Positions 3,059-13,584 of a stretch of DNA of 40,883 nt are shown one piece after another. This DNA comes from a virus. Numbering within the stretch: position 1 is the stretch's first letter; every line of letters begins with the position of its first letter. The notes beneath the pieces are model-generated. The model did not search any database. It had not been told where the DNA came from and worked only from the letters and a program-made list of their open reading frames with translations. The translations under genes and the position numbers were made by a program. The stretch lies in the UHGV virus genome UHGV-0848487; one strand, 5' to 3'.

Positions 3059-3074
3059 TTTAATTTCTCCTAGT

Positions 3075-3100
3075 AAAAAAGGGCCGAAGCCCCTTTGTTT
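3075..3100 (-). terminator. intrinsic terminator-like hairpin after major capsid gene
   Basis: Minus strand reads GGGGC-ttcg-GCCC followed by TTTTTT directly after capsid stop codon. Confidence 0.4.
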
Positions 3101-3115
3101 TTACTACTAACCGTG

Positions 3116-4120
3116 TTACCGGTCTGCGTCGGCGATTGCCAGAGTACCGAGGGTGTGCTTGTTCTCGGCAACAGCTTTGCCCCAGTTAGTCGCGGTGAAC
3201 AGTTCTGCGTCCAGCGGAGATTTACCGCCGTTGGTAACGTCCCAGCTGTAGCCTTTCAGTTTCAGGCCGAAGCTGTAGTCCGCCTGCCAGGTGGTCTGGA
3301 TGCGGGTGTTACCGTTGCTGGTGTCAATGTTGCTGATAATGTCAGAAGCATTATCAACGATGATGCCGTTCGCAACTACGGACAGAACCTTAGTCTTGTT
3401 CGGGCTGCCAGCTTCGTACGGAACCTTAGTCTTGTTCGGGCTGCCAGCTTCGTACAGCGCAGGGATGTCGGAAATTACGTAACGCTTGCCGAGAACATCG
3501 ACAACCATAACGTTGCCAGCAACGAACAACTGGTTTGCGTTGGTCAGCGCTTTGTCCACCAGAGTGTGGTAGGCCGCGCCGGTCATGATGTCAGTGACCA
3601 ACAACTGAGACTGGTCGCCGAATTTAGCGTGGCTGTTGTTCAGCACGTTCAGGGACAAGCCAGCGGTCGCGGATACATCGTTAACCAGTGCAGTCTGACC
3701 GGATACCGCGGCAACGGCGGCACCAACAGCGGTGTTAAGCTGGTCAGCTAACAGTGCGTCAGAGAACCCTTCGGAGATAGCACGAATCGCGCTCGCCGGG
3801 TCTTCGTTCAGCCAGGTCATTTGCGCAGGCTCGAACAGTACCGGTCCGAAGCCGCCAGCGACTTTAACGCCTACATGCTCGCCCTGAGTCAGCGCGGTAG
3901 CTGCCTGAGACGCGATAGTGGCGTAACGGTCAACGCGGCGTTTAGCGGAGGCAATCTGGTTAAAGAAAGACTCACGGGAGAAGTCACCGCGCCATGAAGC
4001 GGTAGACAGTACAATTGCGCCACCGGAGGCTGCGTTAAACTGGTCAGTTTTCTGGCCAAGCAGTTCGATAGTGGTACCGACGATATCGTCGTTATAAACC
4101 TTCATATCTGACAGAGACAT
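3116..4120 (-). CDS. major capsid protein
   Basis: 334 aa ORF following scaffold-like gene; followed by terminator; position in head module; contains 36-bp in-frame tandem duplication. Confidence 0.6.
   Translation of the reverse strand: MSLSDMKVYNDDIVGTTIELLGQKTDQFNAASGGAIVLSTASWRGDFSRESFFNQIASAKRRVDRYATIASQAATALTQGEHVGVKVAGGFGPVLFEPAQMTWLNEDPASAIRAISEGFSDALLADQLNTAVGAAVAAVSGQTALVNDVSATAGLSLNVLNNSHAKFGDQSQLLVTDIMTGAAYHTLVDKALTNANQLFVAGNVMVVDVLGKRYVISDIPALYEAGSPNKTKVPYEAGSPNKTKVLSVVANGIIVDNASDIISNIDTSNGNTRIQTTWQADYSFGLKLKGYSWDVTNGGKSPLDAELFTATNWGKAVAENKHTLGTLAIADADR
3384..3455. repeat. 36-bp tandem direct duplication (2 copies, 35/36 identical) inside capsid gene
   Basis: gaaccttagtcttgttcgggctgccagcttcgtacg repeated head-to-tail; encodes duplicated peptide YEAGSPNKTKVP. 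Confidence 0.9.
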
Positions 4121-4126
4121 ATTCTG

Positions 4127-4753
4127 TTATCCTCGTTTGCCGTATTTGGCGTTAAGTTTTTGCTGGATTACGTCCGCACCACCGGCCCCGCCAGTAGAAT
4201 TTTTGTTACCGGAAGCCCCGCCGCCGGTTGCTGCATCTGCTTTAATCAGATGCGAAAATGCTTTGTGCTCACGCAGATACTTTTTAAATTGCTCTGCGTC
4301 GGTGGTGATGACATTACCATCTGCACCTGTGAACTTGGTCACAACGTCATCGCCGTCAAATTCGGTCTTGACCATCATAGCGATAATATCCGCTGCGCTC
4401 TCATCAATCAACATTCCAGACAACTGGCTGATAACTGATTTACGTTCCGCGCCGAGGATACGCTCAGCCATTTTGCTAATCTTACCGTCTTTCTCGGCGA
4501 GTACTGGCTCATACTGACTGCGCAACGTTTTCTCGAATGCCTCAAGTTCGCCGTTCTGTTTTGCGCGTTCCTGTTCGGCTTTCAGCTTCGCATCTGCGGC
4601 TTCTTTCGCGGCAGCGGCGGCAGCTTTCTTTTCAGACAAGAGCTTCTCGTTGTTAGCTTTAAGACCGGATACCAGCGCGTCAACTTCTTCTTTGGTAAAC
4701 GTGGTCTTAGTCTCTTGTTGTTCGATAGTTTCGTCTTTCACTTCTTCGCTCAT
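4127..4753 (-). CDS. capsid scaffolding protein
   Basis: Acidic, Ala/Lys/Glu-rich coiled-coil protein directly upstream of capsid gene; preferred start ATG 4753 (MSEEVKDET) after GGGGA. Confidence 0.55.
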   Translation of the reverse strand: MSEEVKDETIEQQETKTTFTKEEVDALVSGLKANNEKLLSEKKAAAAAAKEAADAKLKAEQERAKQNGELEAFEKTLRSQYEPVLAEKDGKISKMAERILGAERKSVISQLSGMLIDESAADIIAMMVKTEFDGDDVVTKFTGADGNVITTDAEQFKKYLREHKAFSHLIKADAATGGGASGNKNSTGGAGGADVIQQKLNAKYGKRG

Positions 4754-4775
4754 CAGTATGTCCCCTGGACGTTGG

Positions 4776-4794
4776 AATCCGGGCCACCCGGATT
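4776..4794 (-). promoter_or_regulatory. perfect 8-bp stem / 3-nt loop hairpin in scaffold 5' leader
   Basis: AATCCGGG-cca-CCCGGATT about 20 nt upstream of scaffold ATG; no U-tract. Confidence 0.35.
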
Positions 4795-4832
4795 TACATG
4801 TCAAGAATAAATTATTCCAACATACAAGGCAA

Positions 4833-5096
4833 CTATTCCAGAATATTCCTCACGTAATCCTGCAACATGAACACTTTAAGTCTCAGTTGCCGTACACATT
4901 CTGCGTTCTGGACGTCAATAGCTAAATCCTCGTCCGCGTCGTTACTTGGCAGTGCCAGTTTGCACGGCGGCTGCATCATCGTCGTATCCGGGGATGGAAT
5001 TGGCGTTTGCGACGGCGCGGGACTTGAGTTGCACGCGCTCAGGGTCAAAAGTGCACACGCTGCGGCCAGGCGTTTTAATGTACTTAACGACTTCAC
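4833..5096 (-). CDS. Rz1: o-spanin (Rz1-like outer membrane lipoprotein)
   Basis: GTG start inside Rz in another frame; signal peptide with lipobox LSAC (MKSLSTLKRLAAACALLTLSAC); Pro-rich mature region; overlaps and extends beyond Rz 3' end. Confidence 0.7.
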   Translation of the reverse strand: MKSLSTLKRLAAACALLTLSACNSSPAPSQTPIPSPDTTMMQPPCKLALPSNDADEDLAIDVQNAECVRQLRLKVFMLQDYVRNILE

Positions 5097-5328
5097 GGGT
5101 GATTACCTCTGATTTCGTCTTGCCTTCGTTATCAGCGGCGGCGGCCTTCGATTCATCCTGCTGCTGCCGTTGTGTTTTCTTAGCTAACTCAGCCTGTGCT
5201 TTCTGCTGTTGCTGCGAAACGAGATTCTCCCGGCCTCCGTTCCAGCCGCTGCGATACTGGTAGATGCCGTGTGCGTAAGCCAGGATGATGAAACATGCCC
5301 CCGCTACGACAGTTGCTTTAAGATTCAT
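4942..5328 (-). CDS. Rz: i-spanin (Rz-like)
   Basis: 128 aa; N-terminal transmembrane segment, Gln/Ala/Lys-rich coiled-coil, overlapping lipoprotein gene in alternate frame; AAAGGGGAAAC RBS. Confidence 0.7.
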   Translation of the reverse strand: MNLKATVVAGACFIILAYAHGIYQYRSGWNGGRENLVSQQQQKAQAELAKKTQRQQQDESKAAAADNEGKTKSEVITREVVKYIKTPGRSVCTFDPERVQLKSRAVANANSIPGYDDDAAAVQTGTAK

Positions 5329-5352
5329 GTTTCCCCTTTCTCGATAAGTAAA

Positions 5353-5372
5353 GCCCCGCCTTAAAGCGGGGC
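5353..5372 (-). terminator. hairpin GCCCCGC-loop-GCGGGGC followed by TTTAC, upstream of Rz
   Basis: Stem-loop read on minus strand; near-identical element in opposite orientation at 16780..16802. Confidence 0.4.
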
Positions 5373-5648
5373 GCTAGTCCTTATCATTTAAACATAGAAA
5401 CGGCGTAATCTCAGTAAACCAGTTACTTTTTACACAAGCAATAGAGTATGGCCCTTCCGAACGCGTCAGCGTAACTACACTCAGGACTTACGTCCCGCTC
5501 CGTTACCTGCCCGCGCCGCGGTCGCTTGTTCATACTTCACAAGCTCAGGTGGAGCTTAGCACATTTTTGGTGAAAAGTCAACTATTCGAATAGTTTATTC
5601 CAACATTTACAATTGAGTGGAATGACTGGAATAATCACAGGCACTAAA

Positions 5649-5666
5649 AAGCCCCTTTCGGGGCTT
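5649..5666. terminator. intrinsic terminator hairpin (bidirectional-looking)
   Basis: AAGCCCC-tttc-GGGGCTT flanked by A5 on plus side (U-tract on minus strand) just downstream of the 153-aa gene. Confidence 0.6.
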
Positions 5667-5670
5667 CAGT

Positions 5671-6132
5671 TTATTCTTGCTTAGTAACCTTCGCTGCTTT
5701 ACTTACGGCCTCTATACCATCGGCATCAGTGACTTTAACGAAGTATTCACCAACTGCGTTAACCGTCAGAGACAGAGCCTCTTCCGGGGCGTTTACCACT
5801 TCCTTCCCGTCTTTGTACCAGGTCAGCGCATATGGTGCTTTGCCCGCCTTAACTTCGACAGCGATATTTGCGCTGCCGTCTGCCAGTTCAGCGTCCTGCG
5901 GTTGTACGGAGAAATACACATCACCAGCATCCGCCAGGTACTGAATCTCATAAAGCATACCTGCCGCTGGCAGCGCAATACCGGTCTTGTCCGCAAACGG
6001 CATATCGTCCACTGGTGTTCCGAGTACACTTTCGTCTTCAATAAACACCACGTTCTCGCCAGAGCCAGACACGCGGGCGTACTGGACTACGCGACGAGAC
6101 GGTACGTCAGTTACTTTGAAAAAGCCCATCAT
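5671..6132 (-). CDS. Ig-like domain head protein (decoration-like, putative)
   Basis: 153 aa; C-terminal segment YALTWYKDGKEV...GEYFVKVTDADG resembles Ig-like fold signature; ATGA overlap with upstream MuF-like gene. Confidence 0.3.
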   Translation of the reverse strand: MMGFFKVTDVPSRRVVQYARVSGSGENVVFIEDESVLGTPVDDMPFADKTGIALPAAGMLYEIQYLADAGDVYFSVQPQDAELADGSANIAVEVKAGKAPYALTWYKDGKEVVNAPEEALSLTVNAVGEYFVKVTDADGIEAVSKAAKVTKQE

Positions 6133-12242: not shown

Positions 12243-12271
12243 CTAGTCATTGCGGAAGATAGATAAAAAAA

Positions 12272-12296
12272 ATCCCGGCTGGGTCAGGGCCGGGAT
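12272..12296 (-). terminator. strong intrinsic terminator
   Basis: ATCCCGGC-9 nt loop-GCCGGGAT followed by 7-8 U on minus strand. Confidence 0.7.
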
Positions 12297-12375
12297 AAAA
12301 CTGGAGAGCAGAGGGATGGAACAGGAGGTGATTTAAGTATCGTCGGATTAGTCTCAGGTGTCAATTGGTAAAATA

Positions 12376-12400
12376 AAACCCGAATTCGCGGTCCGGGTTT
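12376..12400 (-). terminator. intrinsic terminator downstream of endolysin
   Basis: AAACCCG-11 nt loop-CGGGTTT followed by TATTTTA on minus strand. Confidence 0.45.
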
Positions 12401-12529
12401 CGGTCATAAGCCCCTGAACCCTACGCAGTCTCCACCGCTTGGGCTGCTGCTTCAGGTTTACCAGGGCTTAGTATGCAAATACGAAAAACTTGGCCTGACC
12501 ATAATACTAAACGCCTTCGTATTCGTCCA

Positions 12530-13033
12530 TCATTTAACTGCCCTCCCGATAGCTTCAGCCTCTCGCCACGGTTTACCGTCGAACAGCGCCAGACGTCCGG
12601 CAACACGTCGACGTAGACCAAGCACAGGCTCGAGTTTACCTGTTTTCGGGTTGCGCTGGTTAATAAACTGACTCATCTTGTGCCGTAAGGTAGGGATGTC
12701 ACCCTGCCGTAGTGCCTTACCGGTTCCGGTATTAGCTGCGATAACACCAGTTCCTGCGTTGAACACCAGGTCAACAACAGCATCAAACTGAGCCTGGGTA
12801 AGTGACGGATGTGCCACCTCGTCGACCGCTTTCACCGCCCACTGCATATCGCGGTTCAGTAACAGCAGCCCCTGGCCCTCAGTAATCTTCTGTCCTTCGT
12901 ACACATCCGGCCCGGTATGGCCCCAGCCGATAGTCCAGTATTTTTCGTTCTTTGTTGCTTTGTATGCAGTTCCGCGGAACCCTTCGAACGCTGCGGTAAA
13001 ATGCGATCCATTATCTGAAATGTTTCGAGACAC
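12530..13033 (-). CDS. endolysin, glycoside hydrolase family 24 (T4/P22-type lysozyme)
   Basis: Motifs FEGFRGTAY ... TIGWGHTG ... LTQAQFDAVVDLVFNAG match phage lysozyme catalytic Glu/Asp/Thr region and helical core. Confidence 0.9.
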   Translation of the reverse strand: MSRNISDNGSHFTAAFEGFRGTAYKATKNEKYWTIGWGHTGPDVYEGQKITEGQGLLLLNRDMQWAVKAVDEVAHPSLTQAQFDAVVDLVFNAGTGVIAANTGTGKALRQGDIPTLRHKMSQFINQRNPKTGKLEPVLGLRRRVAGRLALFDGKPWREAEAIGRAVK

Positions 13034-13283
13034 GCTTGTGCCCTCCGTACGATAGCCACGCCTGACGAATCTGACGCAGCGCGACTAATGTGATTAATGT
13101 CTCGGGCAGCGTTGGCGACATGCTGCCCTGTAACAGGTGGATACTCCCGGCGGCGCAGACGATAGCGGTCAGGATATAGAGCACCCGACCGAATAATCCG
13201 TCATCAACGCTGGGGTGGTATACATTAAACAGCGATGTGCCCCCGATTGCCAGCATACCGCCGAACCAGAATAGCTCATTCAT
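13011..13283 (-). CDS. membrane protein, holin/antiholin-like
   Basis: 90 aa with two hydrophobic segments, between holin and endolysin. Confidence 0.5.
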   Translation of the reverse strand: MNELFWFGGMLAIGGTSLFNVYHPSVDDGLFGRVLYILTAIVCAAGSIHLLQGSMSPTLPETLITLVALRQIRQAWLSYGGHKRVSKHFR

Positions 13284-13584
13284 CCGGGCCTCCTCGACGT
13301 GAGATGTATTCTCCGGCGACGATACCAGAGAGACGGGAATAGATAGGCATCCAGAGAATGGCGATGATGAATCCGAGGCCAGCTATCTCGCGCTCGCCGG
13401 TAATACCGAACCATTGGGCAGCGAGAGGTGCACCAAATACAGCGCAGGTGAAGCCGGTTGCGATAAAGCAGAAGCCGTCGATAGGGCCGGAAATAACGGA
13501 CTTATGTTGTCGTAGTCCGATAACCCCTCCGGCTAGTGCGGCAGCGAGAAGCCACCCCGTCACTGTTTCAGTAAATTTATCCAA
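13276..13584 (-). CDS. holin (putative, multi-TMD)
   Basis: 102 aa with three hydrophobic helices and charged C-terminus; TTG start preceded by GGAGGA; first gene of lysis cassette. Confidence 0.55.
   Translation of the reverse strand: MDKFTETVTGWLLAAALAGGVIGLRQHKSVISGPIDGFCFIATGFTCAVFGAPLAAQWFGITGEREIAGLGFIIAILWMPIYSRLSGIVAGEYISRRGGPDE

Follow-up and report, generated by a model that had tools for sequence, protein, structure and literature searches.

A conserved and probably structured RNA leader precedes the head-module spanin genes of Kagunavirus and related Guernseyvirinae phages

The closest described spanins to those considered here are the overlapped genes of the 'Jersey' family, with members in Jersey, SETP3, K1G, K1H, HK578, EP23 and SO-1 (Kongari et al., 2018, PMC6139136). 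A spanin pair apart from the other lysis genes is also known from T4, in which pseT.3/pseT.2 are not linked to the holin (t) or endolysin (e) genes (PMC6139136). The window, by which we mean the whole stretch of DNA analyzed (40,883 nucleotides of UHGV virus genome UHGV-0848487), belongs to a Kagunavirus (Guernseyvirinae) with 99.4% identity to LF7074P1, and its spanin pair is a further member of the 'Jersey' family with no substantive difference from it. As in that family, the pair combines PHROG 2536 with PHROG 5672/1267, with genes that overlap in the +1 frame, an i-spanin that has a transmembrane segment at its N-terminus, an o-spanin that bears a lipobox, and a place among the head genes at a distance from holin and endolysin. 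It resembles the T4 pair in standing apart from both of these genes, but T4 differs in its separated spanin gene architecture, in its unrelated sequences and in genomic neighborhood. In the window, the i-spanin carries an N-terminal hydrophobic stretch, TVVAGACFIILAYAHGIY, read from the translation, and the o-spanin has the lipobox LTLSAC (MKSLSTLKRLAAACALLTLSAC/NSSPAPSQTPIPSP) together with the signal sequence, cysteine and proline-rich mature part of an outer-membrane lipoprotein. The o-spanin gene starts within the i-spanin gene, runs past its end with an overlap of 155 nt, and has the same 264-nt annotation in K1H and Sciku. On the basis of the PHROG matches, lipobox and coordinates the pair is a two-component Rz/Rz1 spanin of overlapped architecture, as a preliminary description of this DNA had proposed. 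That description also placed the spanins between a scaffold gene and a head decoration-like gene about 7 kb from the holin and endolysin genes, and this holds, the distance being 7.2 kb (Table 1). The holin/endolysin cassette is transcriptionally upstream and is separated from the spanins by terminase, portal, head-morphogenesis and Hoc-like genes, so that holin, endolysin and spanins do not form a contiguous lysis cassette; no lipoprotein-like ORF adjoining the endolysin was found in the window.

For the region upstream of the spanins the closest comparison is the late leader of lambda, in which PR' is followed by the 194-nt 6S RNA, tR', the genes S-R-Rz-Rz1 and then head genes. The window has a similar succession of a predicted, constitutive-looking sigma-70 promoter, an untranslated RNA of ~200 nt, a terminator-like hairpin, the spanins and structural genes. 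Unlike lambda, however, no Q-like antiterminator is annotated and holin/endolysin are not downstream of the spanin leader, and in contrast to the 6S RNA this leader appears highly structured, with covariation, and the U-tract of its hairpin is not conserved across clades. Riboswitch and attenuator leaders, and the put RNAs of HK022, are further points of comparison, as here too a promoter-proximal multi-helix RNA has a GNRA loop and a conserved unpaired core, a hairpin follows next to the ribosome-binding site, and peripheral domains are swapped around a shared core between clades. The leader differs from all of these in having no match among 4227 Rfam families.

Table 1. Coordinates of the spanin locus and neighboring features in the window, listed in the direction of transcription.
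Feature	Position	Strand	Evidence or detail
Holin, holin, endolysin cassette	12530..13584	-	PHROG 2359, 2508, 7; Pfam Phage_lysozyme
Hoc-like head decoration gene	5671..6132	-	PHROG 3945, E 7e-85; K1H annotation agrees; upstream neighbor of spanins
Intrinsic terminator after Hoc-like gene	5644..5666	-	GCCCC-GAAA-GGGGC then TTTTTAGT; bidirectional
Conserved upstream control block	5587..5634	-	TATTCC half-sites (5634..5629 and CATTCC) and palindrome-like GGAATAAACTATTCG (5601..5587)
Promoter P1 (predicted)	5553..5581	-	−35 TTGACT 5581..5576, 17-nt spacer, extended −10 TG-c-TAAGCT
Noncoding structured leader RNA (probable), ~215 nt	5329..5549	-	Conservation, covariation, covariance-model matches
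Leader helix P1	5544-5539 / 5529-5524	-	
Leader helix P2	5517-5513 / 5464-5460	-	
Leader helix P3	5509-5502 / 5475-5467	-	
Leader helix P4, GUAA loop	5497-5492 / 5487-5482	-	
Leader helix P5	5427-5423 / 5417-5413	-	Enclosed by 5438-5436 / 5412-5410
Long 3' leader hairpin	5343..5385	-	Stem GCCCCGC/GCGGGGC (5372..5353) and GAUAAG/CUUAUC (5385-5380 / 5348-5343)
i-spanin (Rz-like), 128 aa	5328..4942	-	PHROG 2536, E 7e-57, full length
o-spanin (Rz1-like), 87 aa, GTG start	5096..4833	-	PHROG 5672, E 7.5e-30; PHROG 1267, E 1.2e-19
Scaffold promoter-like site P2	4804..4832	-	TTGCCT (4832..4827), 17-nt spacer, TATTCT (4809..4804)
Scaffold mRNA leader, two stem-loops	4758..4794	-	AAUCCGGG-UGG-CCCGGAUU (4794..4776); GUCC-AGG-GGAC (4770..4760)
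Head scaffolding gene	4127..4753	-	PHROG 206, E 2.5e-42; downstream neighbor of spanins
Major capsid gene	4120..3116	-	After scaffold gene
Terminator after capsid gene	~3095..3072	-	Read from sequence

Ahead of the spanins, the hairpin after the Hoc-like gene was read from the sequence in its minus-strand form, the scan having listed the plus-strand reading; equivalents occur in Jersey and other clades, and the Sciku annotation calls it a terminator. It is followed by the control block, which the Kaguna, Jersey and Cornell-type clades all retain at a constant 6 nt from the −35 hexamer, on its upstream side, and whose left edge at ~5633/5634 is an insertion hot spot. Promoter P1 has its TG at 5561..5560 and its −10 hexamer at 5558..5553. 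The −35, the TG and a T-A-x-x-C-T pattern are conserved in all type-1 clades, with TG, T1, A2 and T6 invariant, and the 'n' position is C, A, G or T among clades. The −10 matches the consensus at 3/6 positions, a shortfall for which the TG compensates, and a simple promoter scan did not report P1, which scores under its threshold; the same site was predicted independently by PHIRE as 'host promoter1' in the fBC-Eco01 record. Judged by these features, P1 is a predicted sigma-70 promoter of the extended −10 type.

The main result concerns the ~215 nt between promoter P1 and the i-spanin start codon, which probably encode a structured noncoding RNA, a new and apparently undescribed leader. Of 181 phage records with a match, from window-type Escherichia and Salmonella phages, 179 carry the leader at 95-99.7% identity; over ~180 phages the values are 96-99% for the leader and 74-91% for the genes on either side. 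In nearly all related viral-contig loci it reaches 96-99% where the Hoc-like gene shows 84-91% and Rz 74-99%. The leader is more conserved than the flanking genes, and recent recombinational spread could account for part of this. A conserved structured domain with covariation, by which riboswitches and attenuators are recognized, is present here. RNAalifold marked 8 pairs with compensatory changes, and in the alignment of window-type leaders alone 97.4% of cells pair vs 95.8% in shuffles, a value reached by 0/500. The covariance-model alignment, which includes the Jersey and phiEap-2 types, gives 95.3% pairing vs 80.3% in shuffles and double changes in 17/33 pairs vs 9.8 expected (0/500 shuffles), pair counts that are inflated because this best alignment was fitted to the model. 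A small number of deep divergences (window type vs L016/L030 vs Jersey vs phiEap-2) supply most of the covariation. Slid controls of the alignment were paired at 27-42%, and the G·U pairs are confined to the minus-strand sense. Matches of the covariance model lie only just upstream of spanins and on the spanin strand. All leader types are found directly upstream of the spanin start, 12-20 nt from the Shine-Dalgarno sequence, and they share a core, ACCGCG…CGGAAGGG…GUCUAUU, around which peripheral domains are swapped between clades, with structural variants in other genera.

Searches for known relatives of this RNA were negative within the scope of each. Rfam 15 (4227 families) gave no match in the window at gathering thresholds, and only chance-level matches at E ≤ 10 in positions 4700-5750 and in the loci of six other clades. 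ARAGORN found no tRNA or tmRNA, and literature searches on transcriptomics or noncoding RNAs of these phages returned nothing relevant. Blastn of the intergenic region found no match in 5,426 E. coli genomes, so at the DNA level the leader does not come from the host. On viral contigs, a 22-base leader pattern was found only on contigs of Guernseyvirinae size, in a single copy each; the loose pattern ACCGCG…YCGGAAGG gave, among the matches listed, mostly chance hits. Homologous spanins of Dhillonvirus and of Klebsiella 37P2-type phages stand without the leader, so it is not required for spanin function as such.

The leader closes with the long 3' hairpin, 12 nt ahead of the spanin Shine-Dalgarno sequence. 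Its inner part, at 5353-5372, had been reported as a terminator-like hairpin and is indeed present; it is transcribed before the spanin pair, not after it. In the window type it consists of an 8-bp stem with 7 GC pairs and then TTTACTTA, it passes the terminator scan (with UUUACUUAU), and in fBC-Eco01 it was called a terminator by ARNold. Compensatory changes occur within the window type (CCCUGC/GCAGGG, CCCAGC/GCUGGG) and in the Jersey type (CCCGGC/GCCGGG, and UAUACG/CGUAUA in the outer helix). Only the window type has a good U-tract; in the Jersey type (UUAGCGUAU) and the Cornell types (UGUUACG) it is weak, hence termination cannot be the conserved function of this hairpin. Alternative leader pairings were also considered. 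The best complement of the 5' arm of the terminator-like hairpin is GGAGCGGG, the 5' strand of helix P4, in five variants, both partners being simply GC-rich; the 3' arm of helix P1 pairs with either 5544-5539 or a downstream copy, GCUUGU, and the MFE and centroid structures differ. No clear covariation was found for either alternative, and no convincingly conserved antiterminator emerged from the comparison. The extension of helix P2 by CCG/CGG that RNAalifold proposed is doubtful, as it cannot pair in the phiEap-2 and GRNsp27 types because ACCGCG and CGGAAGGG are contiguous there. A pairing of 5518-5514 with 5405-5401 was dropped, there being no compensation in L030, and occlusion of the spanin Shine-Dalgarno sequence by GUUUCU was set aside as too thin, with one compensatory change only (window vs Jersey types).

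We lean, by a modest degree of confidence, toward reading the locus as a self-contained spanin transcription unit whose leader regulates it in cis, set within an ancestral Guernseyvirinae head-module layout. Transcription of the upstream head genes would stop at the terminator after the Hoc-like gene, and promoter P1 would start the noncoding leader, which would end in the long hairpin, terminator-like in the window, just ahead of the Rz ribosome-binding site. Folding of the leader would then decide whether RNA polymerase or the ribosome passes beyond this hairpin into Rz/Rz1, and passage might extend to the scaffold and capsid genes. By this means the leader would set the timing and amount of spanin independently of holin/endolysin. 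Taken by itself, the regulatory action of the leader in cis on the spanins is plausible and tentative, and it is rather unlikely that the leader represents an undescribed class of structured phage RNA that senses a cellular or phage signal and gates disruption of the outer membrane, possibly along with scaffold and capsid expression. The preliminary description had the spanins co-transcribed with late head genes; of this, co-orientation is probable and read-through possible, whereas simple co-transcription with the upstream head genes is not supported, given the strong intrinsic terminator after the Hoc-like gene and the spanins' own predicted promoter. If the leader does regulate spanin synthesis, the step of phage lysis that breaches the outer membrane would be under the control of a dedicated RNA, for which we know of no earlier case. 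As Kagunaviruses and Jerseyviruses are widely used in therapy and biocontrol, a regulatory leader would also offer a handle for tuning lysis.

The same RNA might instead be a stand-alone, trans-acting sRNA of ~200 nt that runs from promoter P1 to the terminator at 5372..5353, with the spanins expressed by read-through, a reading that we regard as improbable without being negligible. Host or phage mRNAs or a defence system are possible targets of such an sRNA. Its own predicted promoter, its extreme nucleotide conservation and the behavior of the window-type hairpin in the terminator scan and in ARNold all suit this reading, as does the independent recombination of leader type and spanin allele in L035, L036 and L049. 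However, the U-tract is not conserved in Jersey or Cornell-type homologues, every leader type lies immediately ahead of a spanin start, and the RNA has neither similarity to E. coli genomes nor a match to a known sRNA family.

Considerably less probable is a role in processive antitermination, comparable to HK022 put or to the PR'-6S-tR' arrangement of lambda, in which the folded leader would alter the RNA polymerase transcribing it, which would then pass the 3' hairpin and further terminators and reach the scaffold, capsid and tail genes. The lambda-like anatomy outlined above favors it, no sigma factor or Q-like protein is annotated in K1H, as would suit a mechanism based on RNA alone, and the conserved unpaired purine-rich core CGGAAGGG could contact polymerase. 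Yet the leader resembles put neither in sequence nor in structure and has no Rfam match, the scaffold and capsid genes seem to have a promoter-like site of their own, and the leaderless HK578 and 37P2 types keep the same downstream gene order.

The preliminary description had proposed that the spanin pair was acquired or relocated as a cassette whose borders are marked by direct repeats and hairpins, and it had named two things as counting against this, a uniform arrangement in related phages and repeats that are non-conserved chance matches. The comparison of spanin position was carried out, and the arrangement is uniform across the Guernseyvirinae examined. The same placement was seen in K1H, the Jersey type, Cornellvirus Shemara and GRNsp27, phiEap-2, Hafnia TS33 and Pantoea AH01, that is in all clades examined, and the same gene order is annotated in SE1; in Dhillonvirus HK578 the spanin is similarly placed between head-morphogenesis and scaffold genes. 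In every locus retaining both flanks and in every annotated phage examined, the spanins lie upstream of scaffold in the head module, and no empty site or other spanin location was found among 48 viral-contig loci, 80 metagenome loci and ~10 annotated phages. The presence of Rz/Rz1 within the head genes agrees with earlier reports (PMC6763661; PMC6139136), and this placement, already annotated and published, is nothing new. Judged by gene order, it is older than the divergence of the sampled clades, and it may possibly go back beyond that split. In our view this is very probably an ancestral layout, with no cassette bounded by repeats.

As to the repeats, TTATTCCAACAT occurs exactly as had been reported, at 4812-4823 and 5595-5606, and CAACTATTC has copies at 4830-4838 and 5579-5587, the end of the first having been given one position too far, as 4839. 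The longer matches are 17/19 (4805-4823 vs 5588-5606) and 12/13 (4826-4838 vs 5575-5587). An exact 12-mer common to both intergenic regions arose in 2/2000 dinucleotide shuffles, and one within the whole 1.2-kb region in 87/2000. The repeats are not chance matches, because they are conserved in three divergent clades and rare in shuffles, and this part of what had been expected to count against the cassette was not found. They are two copies of a palindrome-like GGAATA-N3-TATTC. Copy 2, within the control block, is 6 nt upstream of the promoter P1 −35, at ~−48 of promoter P1, with equal spacing to the −35 in three clades, and copy 1 covers the −10 region of P2, the scaffold gene's promoter-like site, which is overlapped by GGAATAATTTATTCT (4818..4804) and TGGAATAAT (4819..4811). 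At P2 neither hexamer nor GGAATAATTTATTCT varies among the Kaguna, Jersey and GRNsp27 clades, unlike the other spacer positions, and the consensus match of 8/12 is below the scan threshold. TTGACA at 4801..4796 was rejected as a −35 hexamer, having no −10 after it and no conservation in the Jersey type. By position and conservation the repeats are promoter-proximal motifs and not insertion scars or cassette borders; we infer that they may be binding sites of one DNA-binding protein, or shared promoter elements, that would coordinate both units. A third palindrome-like site, at 2883-2897, was discarded, since a ribosome-binding site, a stop codon and a start codon happen to produce it where two genes meet.

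The comparative data largely refute the cassette, which we consider highly improbable. In its favor, the repeats are real and non-random, accessory-gene insertion hot spots flank the leader-plus-spanin block on both sides, and homologous spanins occupy the canonical lysozyme-spanin position in a lambdoid Klebsiella phage, and therefore relocation took place at some point in deep history. Against these stand the arrangement itself, found across the subfamily and common to Dhillonvirus, the fixed distances of the repeats from promoter hexamers, and the o-spanin stop codon (GAA TAG, minus strand) inside the CAACTATTC copy at 4830-4838. In addition, the hairpin at 4776-4794 goes with the scaffold gene, as in HK578 a reverse-strand ORF parts the spanin from it. 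In recombinants L035, L036 and L049 a leader of the window type stands before a spanin, second intergenic region and scaffold gene that are all of the Jersey type, so leader and spanin are not inherited as a single cassette; the mosaic breakpoints fall between leader and spanin and not at the repeats.

That the conserved block instead codes for a 36-aa protein (5533..5423, minus strand) can be all but dismissed, for although the ORF is intact in most window-type genomes and annotated as 'hypothetical protein' in the Sciku and fBC-Eco01 GenBank records, its frame is not conserved, being cut to 9 aa in L014, L022, L023 and L027 and to 17 aa in L005, shifted in L016 and without a start codon in L030 and all Jersey or Cornell-type homologues, with nearly all observed substitutions non-synonymous, no PHROG match and no good Shine-Dalgarno sequence. 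Recognition of the leader corrects this annotation error, which is carried by several GenBank records.

Downstream of the spanins, the perfect hairpin noted at 4776-4794 is present, with 8 bp and a CCA loop, and forms the first of two stem-loops of the scaffold mRNA leader, the second of which holds the scaffold Shine-Dalgarno sequence. Both occur in all Guernseyvirinae clades and in HK578, where the hairpin is directly upstream of the scaffold gene. Compensatory variants of the first stem are CACCGGG/CCCGGUG, AGCCGGG/CCCGGCU and AAGCGGG/CCCGCUU, with a sense-strand U·G variant in 31 loci, and those of the second are GACC/GGUC and AUCCC/GGGAU. The scaffolding protein of P22 is under autogenous post-transcriptional control. 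Conserved stem-loops in the scaffold mRNA, one of them around the Shine-Dalgarno sequence, would suit translational control of this kind, a likeness drawn here by analogy. The pair of stem-loops is a candidate site for translational control of the scaffold protein, or the hairpin at 4776-4794 could instead stabilize the 5' end of the mRNA.

The spanin genes of this phage are preceded by what appears, from sequence comparison, to be an undescribed structured RNA leader with a putative regulatory role. A 2.1-kb query around the spanin region matched 206 phage records, led by Kagunavirus LF7074P1 (99.4% identity); K1H, K1G and numerous Jersey-type phages of Salmonella ranked lower. The most conserved stretch of the neighbourhood is the 342-bp 'spacer' 5' of the spanins, which blastn recovered from 181 phages, 179 of them at 95-99.7% identity; in the genomes used for the leader comparison, identity is 84-91% for the Hoc-like gene and 74-99% for Rz. 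The left edge of the conserved block lies at about 5633/5634, upstream of which many relatives have inserted reverse-strand accessory genes. Jersey-type phages carry a diverged leader homologue in the same place, and Cornell-type phages and other clades carry further variants.

Coordinates of the spanin region, its leader and the holin-endolysin genes
Feature	Coordinates	Strand	Details
Hoc-like gene	6132..5671	minus	Upstream neighbour of spanins
Leader helices P1; P2; P3; P4	5544-5539/5529-5524; 5517-5513/5464-5460; 5509-5502/5475-5467; 5497-5492/5487-5482	minus
Leader 3' hairpin	5385..5343	minus
i-spanin (Rz-like)	5328..4942	minus	128 aa; PHROG 2536, E 7e-57; ORF listing and PHROG scan
o-spanin (Rz1-like)	5096..4833	minus	87 aa; lipobox LTLSAC; PHROG 5672 and 1267
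Scaffold gene	4753..4127	minus	Downstream neighbour of spanins
Two holins and endolysin	13584..12530	minus

A conserved folded noncoding RNA spans the block from a promoter-like site to the spanin start. For P4, the window has GGGAC/GUCC, the related loci L016 and L030 have GGUGC/GCAC, L014 has CGGAC/GUCCG and the Jersey type has GGGCG/CGCCC. L030 replaces U-A by G-C in P3; L016, L030 and Jersey-type leaders replace C-G by U-A in P2. The 3' hairpin stem is compensated independently within the window type (CCCUGC/GCAGGG, CCCAGC/GCUGGG) and in the Jersey type (CCCGGC/GCCGGG, CCCGAC/GUCGGG), and the outer helix of the hairpin is compensated between the two types (GAUAAG/CUUAUC versus UAUACG/CGUAUA). 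When window-type leaders alone are aligned, 97.4% of cells pair versus 95.8% in shuffles, and 0/500 reach the observed value. A covariance model from this alignment matched the Jersey type (E ~1e-6) and the phiEap-2 type (E 0.07), always directly 5' of a spanin and on the spanin strand; a stand-alone sRNA, instead of a cis leader, seems rather unlikely. In the covariance-model alignment, which is fitted to the model and draws the bulk of its signal from a few deep splits, 95.3% of cells pair versus 80.3% (slid controls 27-42%), and double changes occur in 17 of 33 pairs against 9.8 expected (0/500). These pair counts lend good support, short of proof, to a structured RNA. All of its G·U pairs form in the sense of the minus strand, an argument against both a DNA element and an antisense RNA.

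A terminator follows the Hoc-like gene, the conserved promoter-like site comes next, and the leader's 3' hairpin ends 12 nt ahead of the spanin Shine-Dalgarno sequence. The scaffold gene is preceded by a second promoter-like site and a structured leader, and the capsid gene is followed by a terminator. The spanins would form an autonomous unit, with output set in cis by the leader. Its 3' hairpin, which in this phage at any rate has a good U-tract, may work here as an attenuator, or alternatively as a structure governing ribosome access or processing. Alternative pairings give hints of switching: the P1 3' arm (ACAAGC) can pair with 5544-5539 or else with a second, downstream copy of that sequence, a point on which MFE and centroid structures differ, and the 5' arm of the terminator-like 3' hairpin always finds its best complement in P4, in the GGAGCGGG segment. 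Convincing covariation was found for neither. Searches of the leader against Rfam, tRNA models and E. coli genomes gave no match. A put- or lambda-6S-like antitermination leader is improbable.

The preliminary description had read the spanins as a cassette acquired or relocated into the head genes and bordered by repeats and hairpins. The repeats, hairpins and genes that it listed are all present, at the reported positions or within one base, and the spanins do lie apart from the holin and endolysin genes, beside which no second spanin-like ORF was found. This separation had already been published: in the Schulenberg genome announcement, the genes for holin/antiholin and endolysin are called 'genetically separate' from those for the overlapping i- and o-spanins (PMC6763661). 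Kongari et al. described a 'Jersey' overlapped spanin family of 27 members, including K1G, K1H, SETP3, HK578 and SO-1 (PMC6139136). The proposed comparison of spanin position in related phages was run, and the Hoc-like–spanin–scaffold order was found throughout the Guernseyvirinae sampled. It is annotated in K1H (Hoc-like, two Rz-like spanin genes, scaffold, major head protein) and kept in 48 viral-contig loci with spanin identity from 99% down to 63%; diverse metagenome loci show the order too, as do GRNsp27, phiEap-2, Hafnia TS33, Shemara, SE1 and Pantoea AH01. In Dhillonvirus HK578, the spanin lies between the head-morphogenesis and scaffold genes. Since a 39%-identical homologue in a lambdoid Klebsiella phage occupies the canonical lysozyme-spanin position after Q, while the head-module order is widespread, any relocation would be ancient. 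Judged by gene order, the placement is neither unusual nor recent but a known, ordinary trait of the subfamily, and the evolutionary reading is unsupported. The cassette model is very improbable, because the order is subfamily-wide, the repeats are promoter-region motifs and the hairpin at 4776-4794 is tied to the scaffold gene. Co-transcription with late head genes may hold in part: the terminator after the Hoc-like gene and the spanins' own promoter-like site speak against it for the upstream head genes, whereas no terminator was found between the spanins and the scaffold gene.

The repeats are indeed non-random, an exact 12-mer common to both intergenic regions arising in only 2/2000 dinucleotide shuffles (87/2000 within the whole 1.2-kb region), and the copies extend to 17/19 and 12/13 matches. 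The stop codon of the o-spanin falls within CAACTATTC at 4830-4838. Each repeat copy holds, on the coding strand, a palindrome-like GGAATA-N3-TATTC, and only these two sites match so well in the 40.9-kb window; a third, at 2883-2897, was rejected, as a ribosome-binding site, stop codon and start codon coincide there. Copy 5601..5587 is followed after 6 nt by TTGACT (5581..5576), a 17-nt spacer and TG-c-TAAGCT (5561..5553). The layout is the same in Jersey-type (GGAATACTTTATTCA, 6 nt, TAGACT, 17 nt, TGtTACGCT) and Cornell-type phages (GGAATAAATTATTCC, 6 nt, TGGATT, 17 nt, TGaTAACCT). TG, T1, A2 and T6 are invariant across types and the 'n' base varies, the pattern expected for a putative extended −10 promoter, and the PHIRE prediction in the fBC-Eco01 record places a host promoter at exactly this site. 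Copy 4818..4804 overlaps TTGCCT-17-TATTCT directly after the o-spanin stop codon, with the hexamers and GGAATAATTTATTCT invariant in three clades and the remaining spacer variable. We conclude that the repeats are probably promoter-region motifs common to both units and kept across clades, not cassette junctions. The motif could serve a single DNA-binding protein as its operator or, alternatively, act as promoter elements; K1H codes for a small helix-turn-helix protein. On the plus strand, 5606-5635 holds a promoter-like TTTACA-18-AATAAT with TG (10/12 matches), partly built from the TGGAATAAT motif and aimed at the terminator of the Hoc-like gene, which is bidirectional; where relatives have reverse-strand insertions, the equivalent site would hold a divergent promoter.

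Read on the coding strand, hairpin 5353-5372 is upstream of the spanins. Of the two stem-loops that the scaffold mRNA leader contains, hairpin 4776-4794 (CCGGG-NGG-CCCGG) comes first; its lower stem covaries (AU…AU, CA…UG, AG…CU). In HK578 this hairpin is AAGCGGG…CCCGCUU, and in 31 loci it contains a U·G pair that forms only in the mRNA sense. It belongs with the scaffold gene, because in HK578 a reverse-strand gene parts the spanin from the scaffold leader. The Shine-Dalgarno sequence is enclosed by the second stem-loop, GUCC-AGG-GGAC (4770..4760), the stem of which is compensated as GACC/GGUC in Klebsiella-type loci and AUCCC/GGGAU in HK578; scaffold synthesis may be controlled translationally at this site. 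The elements first noticed point to a real regulatory architecture: two promoter regions with a common motif, a conserved scaffold-leader structure and, above all, the spanin RNA leader.

A peptide is annotated in the leader as a hypothetical protein of 36-38 aa (Sciku and fBC-Eco01 records) and was rejected as scarcely credible, its ORF being shortened to 9 aa in four loci and 17 aa in one, frame-shifted in L016 and start-less in L030 and all Jersey and Cornell-type homologues, with substitutions nearly all non-synonymous and the helices kept instead.

Guernseyvirinae also hold other leader types. In one, ACCGCG-CGGAAGGG is contiguous and the GUAAC/GUUAC-GNRA domain lies 5' of it; another has a different 5' domain (UUGACC…CCGGUCAAAC…GGGGAUAGUCUAUUC). 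Common to both is a 3' module of two hairpins, one ACUUACGGCAAC and one whose conserved loop is UUCGCUUURGGCUAC. The different, larger structured leader of L210, L211, L212, L246, L249, L253, L257, L261, L262, L270, L273, L276, L279, L280 and L282 (about 330 nt 5' of the spanin start) contains several hairpins with GNRA caps and clear compensatory changes, together with this 3' module, and it likewise matched nothing in Rfam. By inspection only, purine-rich CGGRRGG followed by GUCUAUU recurs across leader types. Klebsiella 37P2-type loci (L206 2200-2482; L255, L256, L264) are without an RNA leader and carry four to five TTGCGAG(T) copies 5' of the spanin, some as inverted repeats, which suggests a protein-operator kind of control. 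In HK578, no leader was found 5' of the spanin.

At about 5633/5634, where the Hoc-like terminator meets the conserved control block, lies an insertion hot spot (L002 3030-3640; L016 2425-2700; L030 2290-2705; L205 1266-2120; L210 1-1126), whose inserts include a PAPS-reductase-like gene (GRNsp27), a metallophosphatase (Shemara) and the unknown PHROGs 1273, 20712 and 13472. A second, between o-spanin and scaffold, holds a RusA-like gene (SE1) and small ORFs (Shemara, AH01). Four mosaics (L035, L036, L038, L049) pair a window-type Hoc-like gene and leader (leader 96-98%) with a spanin of only 74-81% identity, and therefore place a recombination breakpoint at the leader/spanin junction; L035, L036 and L049 have a Jersey-like second intergenic region (82-83%) and scaffold gene. 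The major capsid gene (1005 nt versus 969 nt in K1H, most relatives also being shorter) contains a perfect 36-nt tandem duplication at 3385-3455 (2.0 copies, 100% match), which doubles a 12-aa segment (…YEAGSPNKTKVP YEAGSPNKTKV…) and could be genuine variation or an artefact of assembly. The endolysin gene is followed by about 280 bp that appear noncoding (12247-12529); the K1H counterpart is about 660 bp and unannotated.
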